A stretch of 64,000 nt of DNA from an uncultured Bacteroidota bacterium (GCA_902557655.1 CACEAZ010000001.1:7699-71698); one strand, 5' to 3'; numbered from the stretch's first letter, positions 6,820 through 22,894 are shown. The notes: generated by a model from the sequence alone, not told the origin. Numbers and translations: made by a program.

Positions 6820-8979
<2,160 letters not shown>

Positions 8980-9046: not shown

Positions 9047-9121
9047 GCGAAAGTAGCTCAGGGGTAGAGCATCACCTTGCCAAGGTGAGGGTCGCGGGTT
9101 CAAATCCCGTCTTTCGCTCCA
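9047..9121 (+). tRNA. tRNA-Gly (anticodon GCC), CCA encoded
   Basis: Hand-folded cloverleaf: acceptor GCGAAAG/CTTTCGC, D arm GCTC-AGGGGTA-GAGC, anticodon arm TCACC-TTGCCAA-GGTGA, T arm GCGGG-TTCAAAT-CCCGT, discriminator T, then CCA. Confidence 0.9.
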
Positions 9122-9136
9122 CAATATTAGTTTAAT

Positions 9137-9222
9137 GCTGAAGTGGTGGAATTGGTAGACACGTTGGACTTAAAATCCAATGGATAGTAATATCCGTGCG
9201 GGTTCAAGTCCCGCCTTCAGTA
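9137..9222 (+). tRNA. tRNA-Leu (anticodon TAA), long variable arm, no encoded CCA
   Basis: Acceptor GCTGAAG/CTTCAGT (G1-U72 wobble), anticodon arm TTGGA-CTTAAAA-TCCAA, long variable arm GGATA..TATCC, T arm GCGGG-TTCAAGT-CCCGC, discriminator A. Confidence 0.9.
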
Positions 9223-9247
9223 CATAATATCCTCAAGAATAATAATT

Positions 9248-9255
9248 TATTTTTG
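9248..9255 (+). promoter_or_regulatory. Candidate -7 box (TATTTTTG) in front of the FISUMP gene, possibly the promoter of the whole PUL
   Basis: Exact TAnnTTTG 28 nt upstream of ATG 9283. No comparable box exists in the 36-nt gap before SusC. Confidence 0.4.
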
Positions 9256-9282
9256 GGGATATTTTTTTTTATATTTAGTAAT

Positions 9283-10179
9283 ATGAAAAAAATTATTCTA
9301 TCATTCGTAATGATCCCTGCTTTGTGCTTTGCTCAAGGGGAAGATGCTGACATCCTATTAAATGGTACAGTAAGTGCTTTAAATAATCAAATCAAAGATG
9401 TTAACTATCCAACCGAAGCCCAAGATGCGGTAAACTTAGTTTTTTTGATGAATAAGTTATCTGACTTACAAGACCAGATTGATGTACTTATGTACTTATC
9501 TCTATCAGATGCTGGAACTGTTATGGATCAAGATGGTAATATTTATAGATATCTACTCTATGGAGATCAAATATGGACAGTGCAAAATGCAGCAGTAATC
9601 ACTTACCGAGATGGCACACCGATTCCTCAAGTAACTGATGATGCAGAGTGGGCTAATCTTGTGACCGGTGCATGGTGTTATTACAATAATGACCCTACAA
9701 AAGGAATTCTCTATAATTGGTATGCTGTAGCAGGAATACACGATACTGATCCAAATACTCCAAACAAAGAACTAGCTCCATTGGGATGGCATATTCCATC
9801 AGACCAAGAATGGTTAGAACTAGAATCATTTCTTATAACAAATGGATATAATTATGACGGTAGTAGTTCAGGAAACAACCTTCCCAAAGCTATAGCTTCA
9901 AAATATGGGTGGAATACCTCTGATACATTTGGCGTACCAGGGAATGATCAATATTTAAATAATTCAAGTGGTTTTAACGCCAAACCTACTGGGACAAGAT
10001 ATGGTTTTCAGTCAGGATCTTTTTCAGAGGCAGGTTCACTCGCAGTTTTCTGGACTAGCACCCCATCTTTTGATGATTATGCGTACTTTTATACACTTGG
10101 AAATGAAAGCGATAGCACACATCTCTATGGTGGTAATTTTATAAGCCAAGGTATGTCTGTTCGTTTTGTAAAGGATTAG
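9283..10179 (+). CDS. Secreted FISUMP-domain protein (Fibrobacter succinogenes major paralogous domain, TIGR02145-like)
   Basis: The track ORF starts at 9196 inside tRNA-Leu, so it is trimmed to ATG 9283 (MKKIILSFVMIPALCFAQ signal peptide). Domain hallmarks: DQDGNIYRYLLYGDQIWTVQN, GILYNWYAV, APLGWHIPSDQEWLELE, FNAKPTGTRY, FWTST, MSVRFVKD. Confidence 0.7.
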   Translation: MKKIILSFVMIPALCFAQGEDADILLNGTVSALNNQIKDVNYPTEAQDAVNLVFLMNKLSDLQDQIDVLMYLSLSDAGTVMDQDGNIYRYLLYGDQIWTVQNAAVITYRDGTPIPQVTDDAEWANLVTGAWCYYNNDPTKGILYNWYAVAGIHDTDPNTPNKELAPLGWHIPSDQEWLELESFLITNGYNYDGSSSGNNLPKAIASKYGWNTSDTFGVPGNDQYLNNSSGFNAKPTGTRYGFQSGSFSEAGSLAVFWTSTPSFDDYAYFYTLGNESDSTHLYGGNFISQGMSVRFVKD

Positions 10180-10215
10180 TCTTAAAACTAAATTTAATTA
10201 ACTAACTAACTAAAT

Positions 10216-13200
10216 ATGATGAGTGGGAGATTATATGTAATCTTTTTTCTTTTTTTTACATTCAGTTTAAATTCGTCAGCACAAAGTTTTTATTCAGGCA
10301 CTGTTATTGATGAAAATGATGCACCTATTTTTGGCGCATCTATAACATTAAAAAACAATTCCAATTTTGCCCTGTCAGATATTGACGGCAAATTCGTGAT
10401 AGAGGCAAAAAATAACGACATATTATTAATTAGTTATTCAGGATACAAAAATTTAGAATTTCAATTGTCAAATAATTATGAACTGAATAATATTATTTTA
10501 AAGGAAGATATCAGGTTACTTGACGAAGTAGTTGTTATCGGTTATGGAAATCAAAGAAAAGAAATATTAACCAGTTCTGTTAGTTTAGTTAAAGGAGACG
10601 ATTTAACCAATGAGCCTGTTTTGAATGCAACTCAAGCATTACAAGGAAAGGCAGCAGGTGTTCAGATAATATCGTCTGATGCTCCTGGAGTTGCTTCACA
10701 GGTAATTATTCGTGGTCTCGGAACAATACAAGCTGGACGTGAGCCACTTTATGTTGTTGATGGGATTTTGACCAACAATATTAATAATATAAATACAGCA
10801 GATATAGAAACTGTCACTGTTTTGAAAGATGCTGCTTCTTTAGCCATTTACGGAAATAGAGGAGCTAACGGGGTTATAATTGTTAACACAAAAAAGGGTG
10901 GAGAAGAAGAAATTAAAGTATCATATGATAATTTCATCGGAATCAGAGATATCAGTTATAGGCCTGTTATGGCTAACTCAAACTCATTTGTCACATATAG
11001 TAATGAGGCAATTCTATTCAATCTTCTTAACGATTCAAATCCTAACAATGACAATGATTTAAGTGCTTTTTTTCCATCAGAACAGTTATATAATACTAAT
11101 TGGATAAAAGAAATTAGTCAGTTAGCATTTCAAAGCAACCATAATATATCAGCTGCAGGTGGTAATGAAAATTTAAAAACTTTTTTTAGTGTTGGATTAA
11201 ATCAGGAGGAAGGGATTTTAAAAGGTAGTGAATTAGAGAGGGCTACGCTAAGAAGTAATTTGGATTATAAAATTTCTGAAAAAATTAAATATTCACATAA
11301 TATTAGCTTTCAACTCGCAAATTCACAACCCAAAAGTTTTGGTGTTTTTACAACAGCTTATAAGCAAGCTCCAATTGTTCCCGTGAGAGATGAAAATGGT
11401 AGATACGGTTCCTCTGTTGCTTTTAATAATGTAGGTAATCCAGTTGCACAGCTTAATCTACAAAATGAAAAACAACGTTTTTTAAAACTTCAAGGCTCGT
11501 TTAAAATAGATTATGAAATTATAGATAATCTAAATTTTACATCTCGTTTTTCTGTTGAAACAAACCACAATCGTTTTTATAATTTTGATAACAGACTTGC
11601 AACCTATCTTTCATTAGAACCTGGAAATACAATTGATAATTTTCAACCAACAGACCCAGAGGCTGAACAAATTCCAGAAACTGTTTTATATGTGGCTCAT
11701 AGTAATGATTATCGTTGGTTTTTCGATAATTATTTTACTTACAAGAAAACATTTAATGATTCTCATAATATTGATGTCACTTTGGGTTTAGTGGCTGAAG
11801 AAAACAAATATGAAACCCTTTACGGGTCAAGAATAAACGTTCCTGCTGATGAAAATTTAAATTTTAATTTGAATTTAGGAAATAATAACGATGGTACAGA
11901 AGGTTCTGGAGGAGGTTTCTCAGAAACTAGAAAACTGTACTCATATATATCTCGTTTAAATTATGATTTTGACAAAAAATATCTTTTTAATTTTTCATTT
12001 AGAAAAGATGCTTCAAATTTCTTTCAAGAAAAATATCGATATGGTAATTTCTATGCATTAAGTGCTGGTTGGTACCTTAGTAAAGAAAGTTTTATGGAAG
12101 AAAGTGGTTTTGATATACTCAAATCAAGAATTAGTTATGGAAAATTAGGTAATGCGCAGATCCCCAGTTTAAATATTGTTCGTTACAATCAAGGGTTTTC
12201 CTATCCATTTGGAGCTAATCAGGATGTCCAACAGGGTGGAACGGTAACCGCTACAGTACAAGAAGATTTGTCTTGGGAATCAACATACGAATTTAACTTT
12301 GGAATTGAATTCGCACTTTTAGATTTTAAACTTAACGGTGAAATAGATTTTTATGAAAGGATTAACAGCAATGCTATTTTGCCCTTACAACTACCCAACA
12401 CATTTGGATTTGACCCATTTCTATCACATGTTGGTGAAATTAAAAATATGGGAGTTGAGCTAAGCTTAGATTGGAAGGATAGAATAAATGATGACCTATC
12501 TTATTCGATTAATACAAATTTATCTTATAATAAAAATGAACTAAGTAAAATATCAAATCAATTTTTTACCAATCAAACAGGCGGAAATATTAATAATGGT
12601 CAGTACACCAAAAGAGTTTCAATTGGACAACCTTTAGGAAGCTTCTATTTATATGAAATAGCAGGAATTGATGATCGTGGTGAATTTGTTTATAAAGATC
12701 TAAATGATGACGGTGAGATAAATGAAAATGATAGAAGATTTTTTGGCACATATATTCCTTCTTTAGTATCCTCTTTTAACATAAAAGTTATTTATAAAAA
12801 CTTTGATATTAATATTGCAACTTATGGTAGTTTTGGCAATAAAGTTTATAACGGTAAAAAAGCACAAAGATTTGGTAATGAGAATATTGAGCAATTTGTT
12901 TTTAATAATCGTTGGACAAGTGGTAGACCAAGTACAAATACTCCGATAGCATCTAATAATGTACCTCTTTCTTCAAACTATTTTTTAGAGTCTGGAGATT
13001 ATTTTAGAATTAATAATTTTACAATAGGATACACATTTGAAAGAGAAAATTCAAAATTATTTAAGAATACTAGACTGTATTTTACGGCAAAAAATCCATT
13101 AATAATCAAGAAATTTTCAGGATACACACCTGAACTTCCTGGTGATCCAATGGGTTTAGCCGGAGTAGAGCTGGATGCATATCCTACGCTTAGCTCATTT

Positions 13201-13227
13201 TACCTAGGAATAAATATGTCGTTTTAA
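10216..13227 (+). CDS. SusC/RagA-family TonB-dependent outer-membrane transporter
   Basis: Signal peptide, CarboxypepD_reg-like N-terminus (GTVIDENDAPIFGASITLKN), plug (VVVIGYGNQRKEILTSSV, LQGKAAGVQI, PLYVVDGI, DIETVTVLKDAASLAIYGNRGANGVIIV), a large barrel and a C-terminal aromatic residue. There is no STN/anti-sigma signalling domain. Confidence 0.9.
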   Translation: MMSGRLYVIFFLFFTFSLNSSAQSFYSGTVIDENDAPIFGASITLKNNSNFALSDIDGKFVIEAKNNDILLISYSGYKNLEFQLSNNYELNNIILKEDIRLLDEVVVIGYGNQRKEILTSSVSLVKGDDLTNEPVLNATQALQGKAAGVQIISSDAPGVASQVIIRGLGTIQAGREPLYVVDGILTNNINNINTADIETVTVLKDAASLAIYGNRGANGVIIVNTKKGGEEEIKVSYDNFIGIRDISYRPVMANSNSFVTYSNEAILFNLLNDSNPNNDNDLSAFFPSEQLYNTNWIKEISQLAFQSNHNISAAGGNENLKTFFSVGLNQEEGILKGSELERATLRSNLDYKISEKIKYSHNISFQLANSQPKSFGVFTTAYKQAPIVPVRDENGRYGSSVAFNNVGNPVAQLNLQNEKQRFLKLQGSFKIDYEIIDNLNFTSRFSVETNHNRFYNFDNRLATYLSLEPGNTIDNFQPTDPEAEQIPETVLYVAHSNDYRWFFDNYFTYKKTFNDSHNIDVTLGLVAEENKYETLYGSRINVPADENLNFNLNLGNNNDGTEGSGGGFSETRKLYSYISRLNYDFDKKYLFNFSFRKDASNFFQEKYRYGNFYALSAGWYLSKESFMEESGFDILKSRISYGKLGNAQIPSLNIVRYNQGFSYPFGANQDVQQGGTVTATVQEDLSWESTYEFNFGIEFALLDFKLNGEIDFYERINSNAILPLQLPNTFGFDPFLSHVGEIKNMGVELSLDWKDRINDDLSYSINTNLSYNKNELSKISNQFFTNQTGGNINNGQYTKRVSIGQPLGSFYLYEIAGIDDRGEFVYKDLNDDGEINENDRRFFGTYIPSLVSSFNIKVIYKNFDINIATYGSFGNKVYNGKKAQRFGNENIEQFVFNNRWTSGRPSTNTPIASNNVPLSSNYFLESGDYFRINNFTIGYTFERENSKLFKNTRLYFTAKNPLIIKKFSGYTPELPGDPMGLAGVELDAYPTLSSFYLGINMSF

Positions 13228-13237
13228 TTAATTACTT

Positions 13238-14680
13238 ATGAAGAAAAATAATAGTAAATTAAAAATATTAATTGGGACATTTATAGTAGTAAACTTATTT
13301 ACCATATCCTGTTCTGAAGAGTTTTTAGAAATAGAAGCTAATCAAATTACTGCTAACTCTATAACTGAGGAACAAGCTGTTGAACTGGTAAACGGTATTT
13401 ATAATATTTTTTTAAGTTGGCAGGTAAGTTCATTTTCATGGAATGGTATTACAAGTATTGCTAGTGATGATGCTGATAAAGGAAGTGATCAAGGAGATAC
13501 CGGTTCAGATAAACATCTTTTGGATGCCTTAAACCATGATGCAACATCTATTTCTGTTGCTGAATTATGGGAAGGTCATTTCAATGGCATACAAAGAGCT
13601 AATCAAGCCATTAACAGAATACAACCATTCGATGATTTGGATAATGAATTAAAAACAAGACTTTTAGGAGAAGCAAAATTTTTACGAGCCTTATTATATT
13701 TTAGGTTGTTACAAACATTTGGTGAACTCCCACTTATTACAGAAACACCAGACATCAATTCCCCGCTTGAAGAATTATTAAGTAGAGCAACAATTGATGA
13801 AACTTTTTTATTTATTGAAGGTGATTTGATTCAAGCGATAGAATCGCTACCAAATAAGAATCAATACCCAAATATTGAATTAGGAAGAGCCACAAAGGGA
13901 GCAGCAAAAACACTTTTGGCTAAGGTATGTATGTATCAAGAAAAATGGGATAATGTCCTGGCTTTGACAAATGAAGTGATTGAATCAGGTGAATATAGTC
14001 TGACATCAAATTACGAAGATATTTGGAAAGAAATTGGTGAAAACAACGAAGAATCAATTTTTGAAATTCAAGCAAAAGGTGCAATTCCGTCAGTGGGGGT
14101 AGATAAATATAGCTTGACCCAAGGAGCAAGGGGTGAAGGCGGTTGGGGCTGGGGTTTTAATGTACCTAGTACTGACCTTCTAAATTCTTATGAGGAAAAT
14201 GATCTTAGAAGAGATGCTACTATAATTTTTAGAGGTGAGACTTTATACGATGGGAGATATGTTCCTGAATCAGTTGTCAATGAAATGTATAATCAGAAAG
14301 CCTACTCTAGTGCTTTTACAGAGTTTGAGCAAACTGGTAAAAATATCAGGATACTGAGATATGCTGAAGTTTTATTAATGAATGCTGAAGCGGCAATTCA
14401 TTTAGGAGGTGACGTTTCAGGTCCTATTAACCAATTAAGATCTAGAGCAGGATTAAATACTCTAAACAGCCCAACACAATTAGATGTTTGGAATGAGAGA
14501 AGATGGGAGTTAGCTTTTGAACATGACAGATACTTTGATTTGGTAAGACAAGGGAGGGCAGCTTCAGTTTTACAATCACTCGGCAAGCCATTTATTACCG
14601 GAAAGCACGAGTTATTTCCTATCCCACAACAGCAGATAGACCTAAGTAACGGTATTTTAACCCAAAACCCAGGATGGTAA
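13238..14680 (+). CDS. SusD/RagB-family glycan-binding outer-membrane lipoprotein
   Basis: Lies immediately downstream of SusC, with a lipobox (FTISC). Typical SusD motifs are present: RALLYFRLLQTFGELPL, LLAKVCMYQEKWD, RYAEVLLMNAEA, ERRWELAFEHDRYFDLVR, FPIPQQQID. Confidence 0.9.
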   Translation: MKKNNSKLKILIGTFIVVNLFTISCSEEFLEIEANQITANSITEEQAVELVNGIYNIFLSWQVSSFSWNGITSIASDDADKGSDQGDTGSDKHLLDALNHDATSISVAELWEGHFNGIQRANQAINRIQPFDDLDNELKTRLLGEAKFLRALLYFRLLQTFGELPLITETPDINSPLEELLSRATIDETFLFIEGDLIQAIESLPNKNQYPNIELGRATKGAAKTLLAKVCMYQEKWDNVLALTNEVIESGEYSLTSNYEDIWKEIGENNEESIFEIQAKGAIPSVGVDKYSLTQGARGEGGWGWGFNVPSTDLLNSYEENDLRRDATIIFRGETLYDGRYVPESVVNEMYNQKAYSSAFTEFEQTGKNIRILRYAEVLLMNAEAAIHLGGDVSGPINQLRSRAGLNTLNSPTQLDVWNERRWELAFEHDRYFDLVRQGRAASVLQSLGKPFITGKHELFPIPQQQIDLSNGILTQNPGW

Positions 14681-14690
14681 ATAAAGAATT

Positions 14691-16022
14691 ATGAAATTAA
14701 ATATTTTCTATAAAATTGGATTACTTACACTGTTTTTTGGGATTTTTTCCTGTACAAATCCAAATGATATTGATCCGCCGCCGCCAGATGTGGGCTTTAT
14801 TCCTGTTGATAATGTAGATGTAATTCCTTTTGAAGATTTGCTAACATTAACTCAACATCAAACTTTCAAATATTTTTGGGATTTTGCTGAACCTATTAGT
14901 GGTTTGGCCAGAGAGGATAGTGAAAGAACTAATATAATTACAACCGGGGGTTCAGGATTTGGTATTGCCTCATTTATAGTTGGTATTGAGAGAGGATGGG
15001 TGAGCCGTGATGATGTAATAAACCGTATGGAAACTGTTTTAACTTTTTTAGAAGGAGCTGACAAATATCATGGTGCTTTTTCCCATTGGTATAATAGCTC
15101 TGGGAATACAATTGAATTTGGCGATTTAGATGACGGTGGTGATATAGTAGAAACGGCACTGTTAATTCAGGGTTTGTTGATTGCAAGACAATATTTTTCA
15201 AATAATAATGAAGAGGAAATAGAGCTGAGAAATAGAATTACAAATATTTGGGAAGATGTTGAGTGGACATGGTATACGCAAGGACAAAATAAAATTACTT
15301 GGCATTGGTCTCCAAATCATGATTTTGCAATAAATTTAGATGTAAGAGGTTGGAATGAAGCTCTTATTGTGTATGTATTGGCTTCATCCTCACCAACATA
15401 CCCAATTAATTCTGATGTCTATAACGATGGTTGGACAAGAGAGGGTGCTTTTGTTAATTCTGGAACTTTTTACGATATATTTTTACCATTAGGTGAAAAT
15501 TTTGGAGGACCCCTATTTTATTCTCATTACTCGTTTGTAGGAATAGATCCAAGAAATTTAGAAGATCAATACACAAATTATTTTGATCAAAATAGAGCAC
15601 ACTCATTGATTAATTATGATCATTGTGTATCAAATCCAAATAACTATGGTGGTTACAGTGATGATAGTTGGGGTATTACTGCAAGTACTAACTATAATGG
15701 ATACTCGGCACATAGTCCAAATAATGATTTGGGTGTTATTTCACCAACAGCTGCTTTATCATCTTTTCCTTATACACCTTTAGAATCCAAAAAAGCACTT
15801 GAAAATTTTTATTATAATTTAAATGACGAATTATGGGGTGATTATGGGTTTTTTGATGCCTTTTCAATTCATTATAATTGGTATTCTGATAGATATCTAG
15901 CTATAGATCAAGGACCGATAATATTGATGATAGAAAATTATCGAACGCAATTATTATGGAATCTTTTCATGCAAGACCAAGAAATTATTGATGGATTAAA
16001 TAACTTGGGTTTTATTTTTTAA
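14691..16022 (+). CDS. Putative (alpha/alpha)6 glucoamylase-family (PF10091-like, GH144-like) beta-glucan hydrolase lipoprotein
   Basis: Lipobox (GIFSC). The segments FKYFWDFAEPISGLARE, GGSGFGIASFIVGIERGW, YHGAFSHWYN, DDGGDIVETALLIQGLLIARQYF and WEDVEWTWY match my recollection of proteins annotated as glucoamylase family protein in Bacteroidetes. The family call comes from memory only. Confidence 0.5.
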   Translation: MKLNIFYKIGLLTLFFGIFSCTNPNDIDPPPPDVGFIPVDNVDVIPFEDLLTLTQHQTFKYFWDFAEPISGLAREDSERTNIITTGGSGFGIASFIVGIERGWVSRDDVINRMETVLTFLEGADKYHGAFSHWYNSSGNTIEFGDLDDGGDIVETALLIQGLLIARQYFSNNNEEEIELRNRITNIWEDVEWTWYTQGQNKITWHWSPNHDFAINLDVRGWNEALIVYVLASSSPTYPINSDVYNDGWTREGAFVNSGTFYDIFLPLGENFGGPLFYSHYSFVGIDPRNLEDQYTNYFDQNRAHSLINYDHCVSNPNNYGGYSDDSWGITASTNYNGYSAHSPNNDLGVISPTAALSSFPYTPLESKKALENFYYNLNDELWGDYGFFDAFSIHYNWYSDRYLAIDQGPIILMIENYRTQLLWNLFMQDQEIIDGLNNLGFIF

Positions 16023-16089
16023 TCATCAAATATGAAAAAATATATAATTGAACTATGTTATATTTATAACTTCTAAAATCAAGAATTAA

Positions 16090-17295
16090 ATGAGAAAATT
16101 TATATTATTTATCACTTTGCTCTTAGGTTATTTTACCTTTGGTCAATGCTCTGACCCGGTTATTACAAATTTTGAATGTGGAGATGCTAGTCAAACTATT
16201 TTAGGCAATGGAATTATTACTGTCGCAAATACTTTTCAAACTGGAATTAACAAATCAGCCAATATTGGAGAATACTCCGATGATGGGACTAATGGATGGG
16301 ATAATTTATTAATAGACTTTGAAAGTGAAATAGATCTTTCCTCAAATCCTTACTTAAGTTTTAAGCTATATTCTTCCGCATCTATACAAGTTTTAGCTAA
16401 ACTTGAGGGAGGCTCAGAATTAGAGTTATGGTCTGACTATAGTTTAGAAAATACATGGGAAGAATTTAATTTTGATTTCAGTGATGCTGTATCAAACGGT
16501 AATACAAAACTAGTTTTGTTCTTTAATGCTGCTCAAGAATCAGGAACATCATCTGACATATATTATATTGATGATATTAGATTTACTAACTCGAGTAATA
16601 ATCTCCCGATGATTTCAGATTTTGAAAGCTTAAATCCATCAGTTCCTCTCTCAGGGAATATTCAAACTGTATCAAATCCATTCTATGATGGGATTAATAC
16701 ATCGACAAACGTTGGAGAATATATTGATGATGGAACCAATGGATGGGATAATTTATTAATAGACTTTGAAAGTGAAATAGATCTTTCTTCAAATCCTTAT
16801 CTAACTTTTAAACTATACTCTACATCCTCTATTCAAGTTTTAGCAAAATTAGAAGGAGATACAGACACTGAGGTTTGGTCAGATTATAGCCAAGAAAACA
16901 CTTGGGAGGAATTTAACTTTGATTTTAGCACTTCTGTCGGTAACGGTAATACTAAACTTATCTTATTCTTTAATGCTTCGCAAGAATCAGGAACATCGAC
17001 AGATATTTATCATATTGATGATATTCGTTTTACATCCTCTTTATCTTTAACTGAAGAAGGGATTTCTGAATTAATTCTGTATCCAAATCCAGTTTTTAAT
17101 ATTTTAAATATTAGATCCAATGATATTATCAATTCGTATAAGTTGTATGATGTTCATGGTAGACTTATTTTAAATGAAAATAATATAAATAGCAAAAATT
17201 TTGAGATTGATATTTCAAATCTTGATTCTGATATTTATATTCTAAATACATATTCTGAATCAAAACAGGAGTCTTTTAAGATATTAAAAAAATAA
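16090..17295 (+). CDS. T9SS-secreted surface protein with two tandem copies of an unassigned CBM-like module
   Basis: Signal peptide, module 1 (about aa 24-166), module 2 (about aa 174-316), then a C-terminal Por/T9SS sorting domain (ELILYPNPVFNILNIRSN...IYILNTYSE...FKILKK). Confidence 0.65.
   Translation: MRKFILFITLLLGYFTFGQCSDPVITNFECGDASQTILGNGIITVANTFQTGINKSANIGEYSDDGTNGWDNLLIDFESEIDLSSNPYLSFKLYSSASIQVLAKLEGGSELELWSDYSLENTWEEFNFDFSDAVSNGNTKLVLFFNAAQESGTSSDIYYIDDIRFTNSSNNLPMISDFESLNPSVPLSGNIQTVSNPFYDGINTSTNVGEYIDDGTNGWDNLLIDFESEIDLSSNPYLTFKLYSTSSIQVLAKLEGDTDTEVWSDYSQENTWEEFNFDFSTSVGNGNTKLILFFNASQESGTSTDIYHIDDIRFTSSLSLTEEGISELILYPNPVFNILNIRSNDIINSYKLYDVHGRLILNENNINSKNFEIDISNLDSDIYILNTYSESKQESFKILKK
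16159..17035 (+). repeat. Intragenic tandem duplication, period 447 bp (149 codons)
   Basis: 16291-16340 is identical to 16738-16787 (50 nt: aatggatgggataatttattaatagactttgaaagtgaaatagatctttc). Similarity is high but imperfect on both sides. Confidence 0.9.
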
Positions 17296-17322
17296 TTTTA
17301 AAAAATAAATCAAAAATCAATT

Positions 17323-18858
17323 ATGGACAGCCTAAATTTTTCTCTCAAAAGTTCCCTATTATTTTTGATTTTGATAGTTTTTTCGTCTTGTGAAGATGAT
17401 TTTCAAGACTTCCCTGTTATAAGCTACAATCCTTGTGATTTAGAGGGTGTAATTATTAACCCTGATATTATAACTGACTTCGAATGTCAGTCAAATTTCA
17501 TATTAGACAATGTAGAAACTGTTCGAAATCCTTCTGAAACTCCTTTGAATACCAGTAATTTTGTTGGTTTATACACAGACACACAAGAACCAACAGATTT
17601 TATTGAAATTGACTATGGATCTCCCATTGATTTATCAACTAATACAGTTTTTAAAATTAAAGTCAAGACCGAAATTTCAGGTGAATTAAGGGTTATGATG
17701 GACGGAGGCTTATCCGAACCGGTTGTTCAGTCACAAAATGTTAATGGCGATAATGCATGGGGAATTTATATTTTTGATTTTAGTTGGAGGCAATATGAAA
17801 ATCATACCAAATTAAAAGTTTTTTTTAATTATGGGGTTGAGGTAATTGGTAGTACACCAAACTTATATTACATAGACGATTTGTTTTTTGATACTTTTGT
17901 TGATCCATGTGAAAATTTTACTGAAAATAATAATATTTTAAGTGATTTTGAATGTCAGCAGAATTATGAATTATCAAGTGTTAATAATGAAATTCAACTG
18001 GTAAACAACCCATATCCTAATGAAATTAATAATAGTATTTTTGTTGGCCAATATATTGATGATGGTTCAGACGGGTCAGATGCATTAACAATTAATTTTA
18101 ACAACCCTATAAATCTTACAGAAAACCCTCAATTACATATAAAAATTCATTCATCCTTAAGCTCACCACTATTGGCAAGACTCGAAGGTGGAGAATCACC
18201 CATAGAAATAAACAACAACATAAATTTGACAAACGAATGGGTTAATTATGTATTTGATTTTAGTTTATCAGCGAATGATCAAACACAACTAAAAATTTTC
18301 TTCAATCACAATATAACAAACGGAACCTTAACCGATATGTATTATATTGATGATTTGATGTTTCTACCTGCACCATGTGATGAGCCTGTAATTGAAAACT
18401 GTTCAAATGTTGTACAAGATTATAATATAATTAGTGATTGGAATTGTCAACAGAATTATGGGATTGAAACTACTGTTCCAAGTGTATTAAATCCGTTAAT
18501 TAGCTGTGATAACAGAAGTGAGAATGTCGGTCAATATACTGATGATGGAACAGAGGCATATGATGCTTTTATATTAAATTATGGTTCAATTATTAATTTA
18601 AATACACACAACAGATTAAAATTTAAGCTTTACTCTAATTCATCAATTCAAGTTTTAGCAAAACTTGAAGGAGGATCCGCAATTGAAAAATGGTCAGACT
18701 TTAGTACGGTTAATACATGGCAAGAATTTTCTTATGATTTTAGCGACTCAATTGATAACGAAAACACTACACTTGTTTTGTTTTTCAATGCCGGTCAAAA
18801 TAATGGGAACCCAGAGGATATTTATTATATTGATGAACTCCGATGGGAAGAAAATTAG
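17323..18858 (+). CDS. Surface lipoprotein with three copies of the same CBM-like module
   Basis: Lipoprotein signal (LILIVFSSC). Modules lie at about aa 48-189, 205-347 and 368-509. The third is closest to the modules of the preceding gene (KFKLYSNSSIQVLAKLEGGS...NTWQEFSYDFSD...LVLFFNAGQ...DIYYIDELRW). Confidence 0.65.
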   Translation: MDSLNFSLKSSLLFLILIVFSSCEDDFQDFPVISYNPCDLEGVIINPDIITDFECQSNFILDNVETVRNPSETPLNTSNFVGLYTDTQEPTDFIEIDYGSPIDLSTNTVFKIKVKTEISGELRVMMDGGLSEPVVQSQNVNGDNAWGIYIFDFSWRQYENHTKLKVFFNYGVEVIGSTPNLYYIDDLFFDTFVDPCENFTENNNILSDFECQQNYELSSVNNEIQLVNNPYPNEINNSIFVGQYIDDGSDGSDALTINFNNPINLTENPQLHIKIHSSLSSPLLARLEGGESPIEINNNINLTNEWVNYVFDFSLSANDQTQLKIFFNHNITNGTLTDMYYIDDLMFLPAPCDEPVIENCSNVVQDYNIISDWNCQQNYGIETTVPSVLNPLISCDNRSENVGQYTDDGTEAYDAFILNYGSIINLNTHNRLKFKLYSNSSIQVLAKLEGGSAIEKWSDFSTVNTWQEFSYDFSDSIDNENTTLVLFFNAGQNNGNPEDIYYIDELRWEEN

Positions 18859-18879
18859 AAATTGAATAATTATCAAATC

Positions 18880-21123
18880 ATGAAAAAAATTTCAATAGCT
18901 ACAATTGTTTTGTCAATATTTAGTCACTGCCTTTATTTAGGCGCAAATAATTATAATCCAGAAACAGATATCTATAGAAAAGTGGATTCTTTAATGAGTC
19001 TGATGACATTAGATGAAAAAATTGGACAAACAATTATGTATAGTGGTGATTGGAACAATACAGGACCATATGTAAATTCAGATAATATGAGATTCCTTAA
19101 AGAAGGTAATCTAGGCTCAATGTTAAATGTATATACATCGAAAGGGACCAGAGAATTACAAAAAATTGCTGTTGAGGAGACTCGTTTAGGTATTCCTTTG
19201 CTTTTTGGTTATGACGTCATACATGGTTTTAAAACAATTTTTCCAATAAACTTAGGAATTGCGTCAGGTTGGGATCTTGAAGATGTGGAGGAGGTAGCCA
19301 GAATATCAGCTGATGAAGCTTCGGCCGCAGGAGTACATTGGACATTTGCTCCGATGATTGATATCGCTAGAGATCCTCGTTGGGGGCGTGTATCTGAAGG
19401 ATCTGGTGAAGATGTTTATTTAACTAGCGAAATTGCTAAAGCGTATGTAAAAGGGTTTCAAGGTAATAGTCTCACTAATGAAAATACAATTTTAGCATGT
19501 GCAAAACATTTTGTTGGATATGGAGCTGCTCAAGCAGGTAGAGATTATCATACTGTTAGTATGGGTGATAATGAGCTTAGAAATGTATATATGCCTCCGT
19601 TTAAAGCAGCAATTGATTCGGGTGTTGAAACATTTATGACTGCTTTTAATGAGCTTAATGGTGTACCTGCAACAGCAAACAAATATATATTTAAGGACAT
19701 TCTTAGAGATGAATGGGGATTTAACGGATTTGTAGTTACAGATTACACAGCGATTAACGAGTTGGTAAATCATGGATATGCTGAAAATGAAAAACATGCT
19801 ACTGAATTAGCTATTAACTCAGGTATTGATATGGATATGATGAGTGGTGCATATAGGCGTTTTTTAAAAGAATTGATAATTGAAGGTAAAGTTGAGGAAA
19901 CATTGATAAATGAAGCGTGTAGAAAAATTCTTATTGCCAAATTTAAATTAGGTTTATTTGATGACCCTTATAAGTATTGTAACGAACAAAGAGAAGAAGA
20001 AACCATCTATCGCCCTAAATTTTTAGAATTTGCAAGAAAAATAGCATCTAAATCGTCCGTTTTACTTAAAAATATTGATAAAACTCTTCCTATAAACAAT
20101 AAACTAACTGTTGCATTGATAGGTCCACTCGCAAAGGATAAAAAAAACATCATAGGTAGCTGGGCAGCTGCAGGGGATAGAAACGGAAAAGCAATTAGCA
20201 TATATCAAGGAATAAAAGAATATTTAGATGATTCGAACATTATGTTTGCTAGGGGCTGTGATATTGAAAGTAATGATTATAGTGGATTCGATAAAGCCAT
20301 TAACATAGCCAAAAAAGCAGATAAAATAATAATGGTTTTGGGTGAAGATTATAATATGAGTGGGGAAGCTGCAAGTAGAACCAATATTAAACTTCCTGGA
20401 ATTCAAACACAGTTGATTAAAACTATAAGGGATGAATTACCCAACAAACAAATTATTTTAGTATTAATGAATGGTCGCCCTCTGGATCTGACAATCGAAG
20501 ATTCTCTAGCTGATGCTATATTAGAGGTTTGGTATCCAGGAACTAGTGGAGGGCTTGGCGTTGCAGATATTTTATTTGGAAAATATAATCCATCTGCAAA
20601 ACTACCTATTACTTTTCCAAGAAATCTTGGTCAAGTACCAATTTATTATAATCAAAAAAATACTGGGAGACCAATTTCAAAAGAAAACCCAACCGAAGAT
20701 TATAAATCAAATTATATAGATTCGCCAAACACTCCATTATATCCATTTGGTCACGGTCTTAGCTATACAACTTTTAAATACTCTGAAATTAAATTATCCA
20801 ATGATAAGCTTAAAGAATCCGAAATATTAAAAGCAAGCTCAACAATTACCAATACAGGGGATTATGACGGACATGAGGTAGTTCAATTATATATTCGTGA
20901 TAAAGTTGGAAGTATTACAAGGCCTATCAAAGAATTAAAAGGTTTTAAAAAAATATTTCTTAAAAAAGGAGAGAGTAAAACAGTTGTTTTTGAGATTTCA
21001 AGTGAGGACTTAAAATTTTACAATAACAAAAAATTAATTCTTGAATCTGGTGAATTTGAAATAGCCATAAGTCCCAGTTCAGATTTTGAGTTCAATAAAT
21101 TATTCAACCTGATTTTAAATTAA
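18880..21123 (+). CDS. bglX: Glycoside hydrolase family 3 beta-glucosidase (BglX-like), exported
   Basis: The track start TTG 18862 is trimmed to ATG 18880 (MKKISIATIVLSIF). GH3 motifs: LDEKIGQ, GIPLLFGYDVIHG, APMIDIARDPRWGRVSEG, KHFVGYG, GFVVTDY (nucleophile Asp context), and a C-terminal FnIII-like domain. Confidence 0.9.
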   Translation: MKKISIATIVLSIFSHCLYLGANNYNPETDIYRKVDSLMSLMTLDEKIGQTIMYSGDWNNTGPYVNSDNMRFLKEGNLGSMLNVYTSKGTRELQKIAVEETRLGIPLLFGYDVIHGFKTIFPINLGIASGWDLEDVEEVARISADEASAAGVHWTFAPMIDIARDPRWGRVSEGSGEDVYLTSEIAKAYVKGFQGNSLTNENTILACAKHFVGYGAAQAGRDYHTVSMGDNELRNVYMPPFKAAIDSGVETFMTAFNELNGVPATANKYIFKDILRDEWGFNGFVVTDYTAINELVNHGYAENEKHATELAINSGIDMDMMSGAYRRFLKELIIEGKVEETLINEACRKILIAKFKLGLFDDPYKYCNEQREEETIYRPKFLEFARKIASKSSVLLKNIDKTLPINNKLTVALIGPLAKDKKNIIGSWAAAGDRNGKAISIYQGIKEYLDDSNIMFARGCDIESNDYSGFDKAINIAKKADKIIMVLGEDYNMSGEAASRTNIKLPGIQTQLIKTIRDELPNKQIILVLMNGRPLDLTIEDSLADAILEVWYPGTSGGLGVADILFGKYNPSAKLPITFPRNLGQVPIYYNQKNTGRPISKENPTEDYKSNYIDSPNTPLYPFGHGLSYTTFKYSEIKLSNDKLKESEILKASSTITNTGDYDGHEVVQLYIRDKVGSITRPIKELKGFKKIFLKKGESKTVVFEISSEDLKFYNNKKLILESGEFEIAISPSSDFEFNKLFNLILN

Positions 21124-21166
21124 AAACAGCATTTACAAATTGAAGGAATTTTTTAAAAACCCAATT

Positions 21167-22894
21167 TTATCTAAATCTTGATTTTTTCTTTTTTCTCTTT
21201 CTTGATGAATTTCTAGAATCGGATCTTTTACCACGATTTCTTCTATCCCCTCTATCTCTTCTTCTTTTAGGAGGATTTTGATCAAGATTGGATGACTCTG
21301 TTAAAACCAAATCATTACCCTTAAAATCGATTTTTTTAATATTTTTTATAAAATCGTCCTTATAGTCTTTATCAATCTCAAAAAATGTTTGATACCTACC
21401 TAATTCAATTTTACCAATTTCAATACTGTTAGATTTTAATGCCCTATTTACAATAGAAATAATGTCTAATGGAGTTGCTCTGTGTTTTCTTCCAATATTA
21501 ATAGAAAATGCTGTTAATGATTTTCCATTTCTATCACCTCTTTTAGAGCTTCTTTTGTCTTTTGACCTTTTGGAAGGCAGTTTATTGGATTCTTTATAAT
21601 ATTTTAAAAATCTATTAAATTCAGCAGATACAAATCTTTTTATTAATTCTTCTCGGCTTAGCCACTCAAGTTTTTTGTATATGTTATCTAAAAACGGTTT
21701 GATTTGCTCCTCATCAACATCAACATTTTCAATTTTATCTATCAGCTTAAATAACTGATTTGAACATATTTCGCTTCCTGTTGGGACCTCTTTTGGAATG
21801 AATTTTATAGCTCCCTTTTTTTCAATAGATTTTATTTTTCTTCTTTCGCTTTCATTTGAAATAGCGATTGAAATTCCGCTTTTTCCAGCTCTAGCGGTTC
21901 TACCACTTCTATGAACATAAACCTCAGGGTCGTCAGGAAGTGAATAATTAATTACGTGTGTAATATCATCAACATCTAGACCTCTCGCTGCAACATCAGT
22001 AGCGATTAATATTTGTAAAGACCTATCTCTAAACCTCTGCATCACTTCATCTCTTTGATTTTGAGAAAGATCTCCATGAATTGCATCAGCATTATAGCCT
22101 TCAGCCATGAACTTATTAGCTATTTCTTTGGTATGTCTTTTTGTTCTGCAGAAAACTATTCCATAAATATTTGGATTAAAATCAGCAATTCTTTTTAATG
22201 CCTCATATTTATTTCTTGAGCTTACATTATAAATATGATGTTCAATGTTTTTTGCGGTTGAATTTATTTTGGAAACGGTAATTTCTTTAGCATCTCTCAT
22301 ATATTTTTTTGAGATACTTTTAACTTCTTTAGATATTGTTGCTGAAAACAACATTGTTTGCCTATTTGATGAGGTTTTATCTAAAATAAAATCTAAATCA
22401 TCCTTGAATCCCATGCTAAGCATTTCATCTGCCTCATCAAGAATTACCTTGTTAACTAGTTCAAGTTTTAGATTTTTTCTTTTTAATAAATCTTTGGTTC
22501 TTCCAGGTGTTCCAACTACAATCTGAACTCCTTTTTTCAAAGATTTAATTTGTCTTTCAATGTTTGTGCCCCCGTAAACAGATAAAAGCTTAATACCTTT
22601 AACGTATTTTGAATAGGATTCTAAATCTTTACAAATCTGAACGCACAATTCACGAGTTGGACAAAGAATTATTACTTGAACATTTTTATTTTCTACATCA
22701 ACTTGTTGAATGGCAGGCAAGCCAAAAGCAGCTGTTTTACCTGTACCTGTTTGAGCAAGTGCGATTAGGTCCTCATTTTCCGTAAGTAAAAAAGGGATTG
22801 ATTCTTTTTGAACTTCTGTTGGTTTTTTAAAACCCAGTTCCTCGATTGCCTTGCACAATTCTTTATTAACTCCTAATTCTTTAAACTTTGTCAT
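21167..22894 (-). CDS. deaD: DEAD-box ATP-dependent RNA helicase (DeaD/CsdA-like) with a DbpA-type RNA-binding domain and an Arg/Lys-rich tail
   Basis: Q-motif region, AQTGTGKTAAF, PTRELC, DEAD, SAT, ATDVAARGLD and HRSGRTARAG. The C-terminal tail is PPKRRRDRGDRRNRGKR...RKRKKKKSRFR. Confidence 0.9.
   Translation of the reverse strand: MTKFKELGVNKELCKAIEELGFKKPTEVQKESIPFLLTENEDLIALAQTGTGKTAAFGLPAIQQVDVENKNVQVIILCPTRELCVQICKDLESYSKYVKGIKLLSVYGGTNIERQIKSLKKGVQIVVGTPGRTKDLLKRKNLKLELVNKVILDEADEMLSMGFKDDLDFILDKTSSNRQTMLFSATISKEVKSISKKYMRDAKEITVSKINSTAKNIEHHIYNVSSRNKYEALKRIADFNPNIYGIVFCRTKRHTKEIANKFMAEGYNADAIHGDLSQNQRDEVMQRFRDRSLQILIATDVAARGLDVDDITHVINYSLPDDPEVYVHRSGRTARAGKSGISIAISNESERRKIKSIEKKGAIKFIPKEVPTGSEICSNQLFKLIDKIENVDVDEEQIKPFLDNIYKKLEWLSREELIKRFVSAEFNRFLKYYKESNKLPSKRSKDKRSSKRGDRNGKSLTAFSINIGRKHRATPLDIISIVNRALKSNSIEIGKIELGRYQTFFEIDKDYKDDFIKNIKKIDFKGNDLVLTESSNLDQNPPKRRRDRGDRRNRGKRSDSRNSSRKRKKKKSRFR

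Follow-up and report, generated by a model that had tools for sequence, protein, structure and literature searches.

GH144 PULs of marine Bacteroidota were already reported in 2019, 2021, 2022, and 2026, and in their canonical form combine a SusC–SusD pair, two or three GH144 genes, and a BglX-type GH3 gene on one strand (PMC6499787; Wolter et al. 2021, PMC8072126; 10.64898/2026.01.10.698779). The marine representatives often include an added sulfatase, from which an unknown marine polysaccharide was inferred as the target (Lapebie et al. 2019, PMC6499787); a Maribacter locus, for instance, comprises GH3, two GH144, susCD, and sulfatase genes. The founding member of the family is CpSGL (Cpin_6279) of Chitinophaga pinensis, an endo-beta-1,2-glucanase (Abe et al. 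2017, as cited in PMC12102758) in which E211 acts as general acid and E142 as candidate base, mutation of D135 or D139 abolishes activity, and E211, F268, and Y330 define the SGL clan (PMC12102758). In other Flavobacteriaceae, GH144 and laminarin PULs, including the Formosa agariphila laminarin PUL, are flanked by BguR, a membrane-spanning one-component activator (10.64898/2026.01.10.698779). Among surface glycan-binding proteins (SGBPs), the closest described relative is the laminarin-binding CBM X584/CBMxx protein of Christiangramia forsetii, a SusE-positioned protein of repeated beta-sandwich modules (8qx6; preprint 10.1101/2023.09.07.556657).

Here, we analyzed a 64,000-nt window (the whole stretch of DNA under study, in whose coordinates all positions are given) from an uncultured Bacteroidota bacterium (GCA_902557655.1 CACEAZ010000001.1:7699-71698), a streamlined, tiny-genome ocean flavobacterium whose assembly is 81.7% (~82%) complete. 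We consider it rather probable that the block running from SusC to GH3 represents a reduced GH144-type PUL, likely directed at linear or cyclic beta-1,2-glucan, devoid of a dedicated regulator and variable among strains. It shares the one-strand SusC–SusD, GH144, and BglX-type GH3 arrangement with the canonical loci, and with those of Flavobacteriaceae also the CBM-like surface proteins, but has a single GH144 gene, carries no BguR, tandem TACTACATCA repeat, LamG-type SGBP, sulfatase, esterase, MFS_2, or GH94, and forms an 11-kb present/absent cassette in a small-genome genus. The first-pass annotation had called this substrate rarely considered in pelagic Flavobacteriia, which was overstated in view of the published GH144 PULs of marine Bacteroidota.

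Layout and strain variability of the locus

The ORF calls together with Pfam and NCBIfam assignments revealed neighboring SusC and SusD genes and CAZyme genes of the same orientation, in the plus-strand order FISUMP, SusC, SusD, 443-aa PF10091 lipoprotein, 401-aa protein, 511-aa protein, and GH3, separated by gaps of 36, 10, 10, 67, 27, and 3-21 nt. The features are as follows.

9047-9121, plus strand: tRNA-Gly(GCC), upstream edge of the variable site (ARAGORN)
9137-9223, plus strand: tRNA-Leu(TAA), upstream edge of the variable site (ARAGORN)
9228-9262, plus strand: hairpin ATATCCTCAAG...TTGGGGATAT with -7 box TATTTTTG at 9248-9255 (sequence inspection)
9283-10179, plus strand: FISUMP-domain secreted protein, 298 aa (Pfam Fib_succ_major; NCBIfam)
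10171-10198, unstranded: left imperfect direct repeat AAGGATTAGTCTTAAAACTAAATTTAAT (junction alignment against the PUL-less site of G013)
10216-13227, plus strand: SusC-type TonB-dependent transporter, 1003 aa (Pfam CarbopepD_reg_2 and Plug, no STN)
13238-14680, plus strand: SusD-family lipoprotein, 480 aa (Pfam SusD_RagB, SusD-like_3; N-terminus ...ISCSEE)
14691-16022, plus strand: GH144 lipoprotein, 443 aa, predicted endo-beta-1,2-glucanase (PF10091, E 2e-71)
16090-17295, plus strand: 401-aa protein with two CBM-like modules and Por_Secre_tail, the T9SS C-terminal sorting domain (Pfam, NCBIfam)
17323-18858, plus strand: 511-aa lipoprotein with three CBM-like beta-sandwich modules (weak Pfam CBM_4_9; ortholog alignment; AlphaFold)
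18880-21123, plus strand: GH3 BglX-type exo-beta-glucosidase, 747 aa from ATG (Pfam GH3 N, C, and Fn3-like)
21143-21170, unstranded: right imperfect direct repeat AAGGAATTTTTTAAAAACCCAATTTTAT, overlapping the deaD stop codon

SusC scored 761 bits against NCBIfam TIGR04056 (cut-off 368). The GH3 start is likely the ATG at 18880 rather than 18862, and that of FISUMP was set at the ATG at 9283 because a longer ORF from 9196 overlaps tRNA-Leu. Several proposals of the first-pass annotation held at this level: the PUL is closely spaced on one strand (gaps of 3-67 nt from SusC to GH3), SusC is devoid of an STN domain, and Pfam detected no GH16, GH17, or GH30, nor GH149 or GH158, in any of the seven locus genes. 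Its locus start at 9248, by contrast, falls on a TAnnTTTG promoter-like box where no gene begins. The locus is flanked upstream by mutS, GH97, tRNA-Gly, and tRNA-Leu and downstream by the convergent deaD. The GH97 gene was considered as a functional partner and set aside, its adjacency being regarded as coincidental because no more than 2 of the 47 related loci have a GH97 within 10 kb, two tRNA genes intervene, and the RNA depth differs.

The block from SusC to GH3 (10216-21123, ~11 kb) adjoins tRNA genes and varies between strains as a cassette, present in some close relatives and missing from others. Copies of an imperfect direct repeat of 28 bp bound it on either side. The tRNA-Leu/deaD site occurs empty, with FISUMP only, or with both FISUMP and the PUL: deaD directly follows tRNA-Gly/tRNA-Leu in six congeners, and alignment of both window junctions with genome G013 revealed FISUMP without the PUL and the repeat in single copy. 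In G019 and G020 the site is empty and a GH144 gene lies on a different contig. The genomes of this genus comprise ~1.0-1.5 Mb of assembled sequence and are 56-86% complete. FISUMP, which the first-pass annotation had counted as part of the locus, is better regarded as a neighbor, and its role as first PUL cistron was rejected: besides its PUL-less occurrence in G013, it is absent from five PUL loci (L003, L004, L005, L018, and L026), one RNA contig skips it by running from 9269 straight on to 10213, and its RNA depth was 0 in four runs. A FISUMP paralogue (52%) is located on contig C14.

Regulation and transcription

The first-pass annotation had described the locus as regulator-less, and this was corroborated: Pfam domains and BguR tblastn searches revealed no regulator in the seven locus genes or the flanks. 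The search was extended to the source genome (82% complete), in which neither GerE nor Y_Y_Y domains were found and BguR queries produced no tblastn match. The BguR sensor was detected in none of the 21 genomes of the genus but in 81 of the 121 family genomes that served as positive control, and no regulator is adjacent to the locus in any of six close relatives. Thus, the adjacent ~940-aa sensor-TM-GerE one-component regulator gene that characterizes BguR systems is missing from locus, genome, and genus. The window locus shares the beta-glucan target class and SusCD with the BguR-controlled PULs but differs from them in this respect, although many of its related loci carry BguR.

The cis-acting sequences were examined likewise. 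A tandem TACTACATCA motif, which was derived here from related loci and may differ from the published logo, is found in similar form upstream of susC in four BguR-linked loci (L008, L009, L010, and L011). No such repeat occurs upstream of the window susC or FISUMP, so that this motif gave no sign of a relic BguR operator. Control by the genome's own LacI was rejected, since CGAAAACGTTTTCG, the perfect palindrome, is confined to C23:1522, where it accompanies a probable susC, and nothing similar lies near the locus. No promoter-like element other than the Bacteroidetes-type -7 box TATTTTTG precedes the locus. In L005 and L006, susC likewise follows a homologous hairpin and box, and TAATTTTG is located ~30 nt before susC in L003, L004, and L018. 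Given that the genus has no BguR and the locus neither the TACTACATCA repeat nor the LacI palindrome, expression is probably low and largely constitutive from this plain promoter. The unassembled DNA of this 82% complete genome could, however, encode a regulator acting in trans, a transporter, or a phosphorylase.

Near-identical metatranscriptome contigs span all six PUL genes from SusC to GH3 at a depth of ~2-6, similar to mutS and waaA and compared with 30-90 for deaD; these RNA contigs derive from mixed populations in four metatranscriptomes, and their depth is a poor measure of expression. The low depth of the PUL is compatible both with repression and with constitutive expression at a weak level.

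Features of the encoded proteins

The sequence search of the 443-aa protein against PDB returned 4gl3 (E 3e-144) and CpSGL (5gzh/5gzk, E 2e-139) as the closest solved structures, together with BDI_3064 and XcSGL, and no GH162 chain was among the matches at E <= 0.01. Its identity to CpSGL is 52% across 395 aligned residues, and all seven functional residues are kept, D147, D151, E154, E223, F276, Y338, and D406 corresponding to CpSGL D135, D139, E142, E211, F268, Y330, and D400. These include the equivalents of the general acid (E223), the candidate base (E154), and the two essential Asp residues (D147, D151), as well as the clan residues E223, F276, and Y338. We assign the protein to GH144 on this homology; the first-pass annotation had named a position outside PF10091/GH144 as decisive against its reading, and the protein falls inside. 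Unlike CpSGL, it is a lipoprotein (lipobox FSC at Cys21) from a marine PUL, with a predicted activity. It is the sole PF10091 gene of the 82% complete source genome, no second GH144 being found in this assembly, and is orthologous to copies in Algibacter, Snuella, Aurantibacter, and Christiangramia at 58-67% identity.

The GH3 enzyme scored 816 bits against the NCBIfam BglX equivalog (cut-off 666) and matched 3u48, 5tf0, BT_3567 of B. thetaiotaomicron (719 bits), and Lin1840 of Listeria innocua (575 bits) among PDB relatives; with its signal peptide, it is probably periplasmic. BT_3567 and Lin1840 have been tied to beta-1,2-glucan and belong to the same BglX-type subfamily, which is not restricted to beta-1,2 loci. 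The source genome encodes on C14 a GH3 paralogue beside a GH16, 48% identical to the window enzyme, which scored 704 bits against BT_3567 and nests among GH144-linked GH3s in the GH3 phylogeny, and characterized relatives cleave sophorose and laminaribiose at comparable rates (PMC12369401). The GH3 was therefore discarded as evidence of sophorose specificity, and the argument of the first-pass annotation from a sophorose-preferring GH3 proved non-discriminating.

Of all parts of the locus, the two CBM-repeat proteins are understood least. Their modules are 37-45% identical between the 401-aa and 511-aa proteins. Homologous modules are encoded in the GH16 cluster of the same genome, and the N-terminus of an L026 GH16 is homologous as well. 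The 401-aa protein is conserved in flavobacterial GH144 loci, and the 511-aa protein has a lipoprotein Cys23 followed by EDD; both are probably surface glycan-binding proteins. A module of the latter, in an AlphaFold model with a pLDDT of only 61, matched the CBM X584 structure 8qx6 by Foldseek (TM 0.69, 21% identity), and phmmer aligned one module with the 8qx6 chain at E 0.0016. Both are surface proteins at the SusE position with repeated beta-sandwich modules; the window modules may resemble CBM X584 in a fold that is drawn from a model, and differ in being located in a GH144 rather than a GH16/17/30 locus. When the 511-aa model was searched whole with Foldseek, unrelated multi-domain proteins rich in beta-sandwiches (reelin, Cry/Vip toxins) prevailed among the matches; these were disregarded, only the single-domain 8qx6 match being informative.

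Substrate and competing explanations

The majority of the 47 related loci, which come from Flavobacteriaceae, Cytophagia, Chitinophagia, and Bacteroidales, follow the order SusC–SusD–GH144(–GH144)–GH3, so the arrangement is far beyond chance. In locus L010 of Snuella, the same CBM-like proteins are followed by MFS_2 and a SOGP_N/GH94 gene, the latter for a 1,2-beta-oligoglucan phosphorylase. The GH144 identity, the kept residues, the synteny, and this phosphorylase link make beta-1,2-glucan the best-supported candidate substrate, as the first-pass annotation had suggested, with homology and gene context as the grounds.

Another glucan would come into question if the locus were an accessory PUL for laminarin or a mixed beta-1,3/1,6-glucan, its CBMs binding laminarin, SusCD importing it, and GH3 degrading it, with GH144 drifted or acting on a minor linkage. 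The likeness of the modules to CBM X584 by fold, and weakly by sequence, agrees with this, as do their kinship with GH16-linked proteins, the use of the same GH3 subfamily by the GH16 cluster and its comparable activity on laminaribiose, and the L026 locus, in which a GH144 PUL adjoins a GH16 and a BguR gene. We nevertheless consider it improbable, given that the locus has none of the five laminarin-related families sought, that the GH144 residues are intact in a protein 52% identical to a characterized beta-1,2-glucanase, that the orthologous L010 is linked to the phosphorylase, and that the BguR of GH144 PULs forms a clade apart from that of laminarin PULs. Moreover, the genome already owns a separate cluster on C14, consisting of its only GH16, a GH3, and a terminal LacI gene, which is predicted to serve laminarin-type glucan and with which the probable susC on C23 is grouped. 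Similarly improbable is a decorated marine target, be it a polymer or a glycoconjugate, that contains beta-1,2-glucosyl linkages, such as a sulfated analogue or substituted osmoregulated periplasmic glucans. The sulfatases of marine GH144 PULs (Lapebie et al. 2019, PMC6499787), including the Maribacter example, and the esterase, GH43, or GH2 genes that other related loci add would fit such a target, but Pfam revealed no sulfatase, esterase, or other decoration-removing enzyme in the cassette, so that processing would be confined to glucans, or stretches of them, that bear no decoration.

With respect to control, an unseen factor might regulate the locus, be it a regulator in the unassembled 18%, the LacI from the GH16 cluster as a trans-acting factor, or an RNA element of the leader that works in cis. 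The incomplete assembly, the LacI gene itself, the conserved upstream hairpin, and a transcript depth compatible with repression leave some room for this, but we hold it unlikely considering that the only perfect LacI-type palindrome lies on another contig and that BguR is absent throughout the genus, as is any adjacent regulator in the six relatives' loci.

Many Gram-negative bacteria produce beta-1,2-glucans. If the preferred reading of a beta-1,2-glucan PUL is true, dedicated uptake in abundant small-genome flavobacteria would add a bacteria-to-bacteria carbon loop beside the better-known algal laminarin route. The added value is narrower because GH144 PULs are already recognized, and lies in a minimal retained gene set (SusCD, one GH144, two CBM proteins, and one GH3), in the persistence of a GH144 PUL without its usual accompanying regulator, and in a strain variability that should be borne in mind wherever MAGs are used to infer glycan niches. 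More tentatively, we can conceive that the whole streamlined pelagic Flavobacteriaceae genus dropped BguR while keeping beta-glucan PULs, that the GH144 locus became a promoter-only 11-kb cassette gained and lost at tRNA-adjacent sites, and that its CBM X584-like modules were retuned from binding beta-1,3- to binding beta-1,2-glucan. In that case, individual strains in the open ocean would be set apart by a niche of weak, constitutive scavenging of bacterial beta-1,2-glucans, that is, of periplasmic or cyclic glucans from necromass.

Judging from the protein families, linear or cyclic beta-1,2-glucan that other bacteria release would be captured at the cell surface by the three-module CBM-like lipoprotein, the two-module T9SS-anchored protein, and SusD. 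The GH144 lipoprotein, whether surface-exposed or periplasmic, would then cut it endolytically to sophoro-oligosaccharides, which SusC would import as chains and the periplasmic GH3 would trim to glucose, to be taken up by a transporter presumably encoded elsewhere. In the 82% complete source genome, SOGP had no match and MFS a weak match only. The cytoplasmic branch of larger genomes is composed of an MFS_2 transporter and a GH94 1,2-beta-oligoglucan phosphorylase, the genes for which are present in L010, L014, and others.

Gene content and the GH144 enzyme

ORF calling combined with Pfam searches resolved seven ORFs in the region, all on the + strand and with an intergenic spacing of 3-67 nt, in the following layout:

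Upstream flank: mutS, GH97 (6832-8979), then tRNA-Gly (9047-9121) and tRNA-Leu (9137-9223)
ATG 9283, + strand: FISUMP-domain protein
+ strand: SusC-type transporter, CarbopepD_reg_2 and Plug domains, without STN
+ strand: SusD
+ strand: 443-aa PF10091 'glucoamylase' protein (E 2e-71)
+ strand: 401-aa protein with a T9SS C-terminal sorting domain
+ strand: 511-aa protein with a weak CBM_4_9 match only
Likely start ATG 18880, + strand: three-domain GH3
Downstream flank: deaD (21167-22894), convergent

The one-strand order from SusC to GH3 agrees with the first-pass annotation, and the locus start it had set at 9248 corresponds to a TAnnTTTG box where no gene begins. The FISUMP start was assigned to ATG 9283 because a longer ORF from 9196 overlaps tRNA-Leu. 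No regulator domain, GH16, GH17 or GH30 was detected by Pfam in the genes of the block or in the adjoining genes, which, along with the STN-less SusC, bears out the earlier description.

The 443-aa protein, encoded by the only PF10091 gene in the assembly (1.39 Mb, 82% complete), carries a lipoprotein signal (…FSC, Cys21). Its best matches among solved structures in the PDB search were all GH144, namely 4gl3 (E 3e-144) and the Chitinophaga pinensis endo-beta-1,2-glucanase CpSGL (5gzh/5gzk, E 2e-139, 52% identity overall), with further matches to 3eu8, 4qt9, the sophorose-releasing BDI_3064 and XcSGL 8xul; no GH162 chain was found among the structure matches at E <= 0.01. In CpSGL, E211 is the general acid and E142 the candidate base, mutation of D135 or D139 abolishes activity, D400 is also functionally implicated, and E211/F268/Y330 are the clan-defining residues (Nakajima et al. 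2025, PMC12102758). When these positions were transferred via the printed pairwise alignment, all seven functionally implicated residues were found to be kept (window D147, D151, E154, E223, F276, Y338 and D406). The family match, the structures and the residues together confirm the proposed PF10091/GH144 membership.

Gene context and the substrate

A scan of species-representative genomes, with gene content mapped by tblastn, yielded 47 loci, most of which show the arrangement SusC-SusD-GH144(-GH144)-GH3 across Flavobacteriaceae, Cytophagia, Chitinophagia and Bacteroidales; GH144 also lies beside GH3 in some Proteobacteria. The closest relatives (92-96% identity) come from single-cell genomes bearing the label 'uncultured Bacteroidetes', followed by a 'Formosa sp.' MAG (75%), and both CBM-like proteins are kept across the flavobacterial loci. 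The corresponding locus of Snuella lapsa (L010) runs on into an MFS_2 sugar transporter and a SOGP_N/GH94-supersandwich gene, a 1,2-beta-oligoglucan phosphorylase, and this linkage connects this type of PUL with beta-1,2-glucan without recourse to the GH144 annotation. The window's genome gave no match to the phosphorylase and only a weak match to the transporter.

The locus could also, with low probability, be read as an accessory laminarin or mixed beta-1,3/1,6-glucan PUL, a reading whose main support comes from the CBM-like modules. The 511-aa protein, a lipoprotein by its Cys23 (next residues EDD), carries three repeats, and the 401-aa protein is T9SS-anchored with two. An AlphaFold model of the former, built from eight orthologues (pLDDT 61, with beta-sandwich cores at 70-87), had as its only informative Foldseek match 8qx6, the 'novel laminarin-binding CBM X584' (TM 0.69, 21% identity; phmmer match to the same chain, E 0.0016), and related modules occur in the GH16 cluster of this genome and at the GH16 N-terminus in L026, a single-cell genome locus. 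They are predicted members of a beta-glucan-binding CBM superfamily, for which either linkage type is possible.

The GH3 scores 816 bits against the NCBI BglX equivalog (cut-off 666), and its closest structures include BT_3567 and Lin1840, the pair of GH3s associated with the metabolism of beta-1,2-glucan. Its sophorose pairing, however, was dropped as a substrate marker: a second GH3 on contig C14, 48% identical, lies directly 3' of the genome's only GH16, scores nearly equally against the same structures (704 versus 719 bits for BT_3567) and falls within the GH144-linked GH3s in the tree, and Lin1840 and BT_3567 hydrolyze laminaribiose about as fast as sophorose (PMC12369401). The GH3 thus does not discriminate between substrates, and the beta-1,2-glucan call therefore rests on GH144 and gene context.

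Family memberships, conserved catalytic residues, synteny and the SOGP linkage in an orthologous locus are direct observations, around which we infer a course of degradation. The glucan would be captured at the surface by the CBM proteins and SusD and cleaved endolytically by GH144, its products would be imported via SusC, and GH3 would release glucose in the periplasm for uptake by a transporter encoded elsewhere.

The suggestion that this substrate is rarely considered for pelagic Flavobacteriia is overstated, as GH144 PULs of marine organisms were pointed out in 2019 (PMC6499787) and are described in Maribacter and Zobellia (PMC8072126), in the NS5 marine group (PMC9122927) and in North Sea Flavobacteriia (10.64898/2026.01.10.698779). 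Such PULs rank among the abundant types, and the locus is an ordinary, reduced representative; specific to it are that the whole genus has lost the regulator BguR, that the gene set is minimal and that the block behaves as a cassette.

Several side observations concern gene content. A conserved 680-aa MFS_2 transporter occurs in larger-genome GH144 PULs (L010:18339-21296, also L008, L014, L025, L046 and L047), joined by the SOGP/GH94 phosphorylase in L010 and L014, and GH43+F5/8-type-C proteins, an esterase, a PhyH dioxygenase or LamG-repeat lipoproteins are present in others; the accessory content of the type thus differs widely. The 401-aa gene contains an internal tandem duplication of 447 bp (16291-16787), within which one metatranscriptome contig (run X29) 'goes back 447', which probably reflects either how the repeat was assembled or a variant copy number.

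Regulation

BguR is a ~940-aa one-component activator comprising a sensor, a transmembrane segment and a GerE domain (10.64898/2026.01.10.698779). Proteins of ~900 aa with a C-terminal GerE domain adjoin susC in L007, L008 and L011, and tblastn with these proteins found further matches in L009, L010 and more than 12 other loci. Unlike these canonical GH144 PULs, the reduced locus of the window has no BguR beside it, nor do those of its five closest relatives; the window's genome harbors no GerE domain and no Y_Y_Y match above the Pfam cut-off, and returned no tblastn match to BguR queries. The sensor domain was detected in 0 of the 21 genomes of the genus versus 81 of 121 in the family, some of the latter 1.5-1.9 Mb in size, and the absence is therefore genus-wide rather than an assembly gap.

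A tandem TACTACATCA-like repeat 5' of susC is common to BguR-linked loci and was not found upstream of the window's locus, whose sole upstream signal is a hairpin with a TAnnTTTG box (9228-9262), also present in L005 and L006; TAATTTTG lies immediately 5' of susC in L003, L004 and L018. The genome's other beta-glucan cluster (C14:1-6193) encodes a CBM-like protein, a lipoprotein, GH16, GH3 and a closing LacI-family regulator. At its probable start (C23:1-1600), where susC runs off the contig end, a perfect 14-bp palindrome, CGAAAACGTTTTCG, lies ~230 nt upstream; this is its single perfect occurrence in the genome, and it is absent from the window's locus. A cytoplasmic LacI repressor may control the laminarin-type PUL of this BguR-less genus. 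Separately, L026:1-5257 (single-cell genome AH-326-E05, GH144 78% identical) has a T9SS-sorted GH16, a further T9SS protein and the N-terminal portion of a gene resembling BguR next to its GH144 PUL in divergent orientation, and a single regulator may serve this combined beta-1,3/beta-1,2-glucan region.

Cassette polymorphism and transcription in situ

Five of the genus's 21 genomes encode a GH144. Searching the genus with the GH97-tRNA segment revealed an empty site, with tRNA-Leu directly followed by deaD, in G006, G009, G010, G016, G019 and G020, a FISUMP-only site in G013 (flank 98% identical to the window) and FISUMP together with the PUL in the window and G007. The GH144 gene of G019 and G020 lies on another contig, and in L004 and L005 the PUL follows a different tRNA cluster. 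Alignment of both window junctions with the G013 site, which has one copy, showed the SusC-to-GH3 block to lie between two copies of a 28-bp imperfect direct repeat (10171-10198 and 21143-21170).

The FISUMP gene, which the first-pass annotation had counted within the locus, proved a mere neighbor. In run X26, an RNA contig passes straight from the post-tRNA-Leu hairpin to susC (9269 to 10213), with 18 other bases replacing the 943-nt FISUMP segment; the site therefore also exists in natural populations with the PUL but no FISUMP. Since FISUMP depth was, in addition, zero in four metatranscriptome runs, the gene is not the first cistron. A FISUMP paralogue (52% identical) lies at C14:25326-26258, and the G013 allele at the same site is only 56% identical to the window's despite the 98% flank, a sequence pattern that suggests allele replacement.

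Like the absent BguR and the cassette polymorphism, transcription in situ was observed directly: four marine metatranscriptomes contained near-identical contigs for the six PUL genes, from SusC through GH3. By summed contig depth, a weak expression measure in mixed populations, the locus is transcribed at a low level (~2-6, like mutS and waaA; GH97 13-43, deaD 30-90). The GH97 gene adjoining mutS has 5-10x the depth of the PUL genes; it scores 268 bits against the NCBIfam 'retaining alpha-galactosidase', far under the cut-off of 800, and although the Algibacter locus (L008) ends in a 41% homologue, GH97 lies near GH144 in only 2 of the 47 loci. Apart from the tRNA segment, deaD has the deepest coverage in the region, compared with 2-6 for its protein-coding neighbors.
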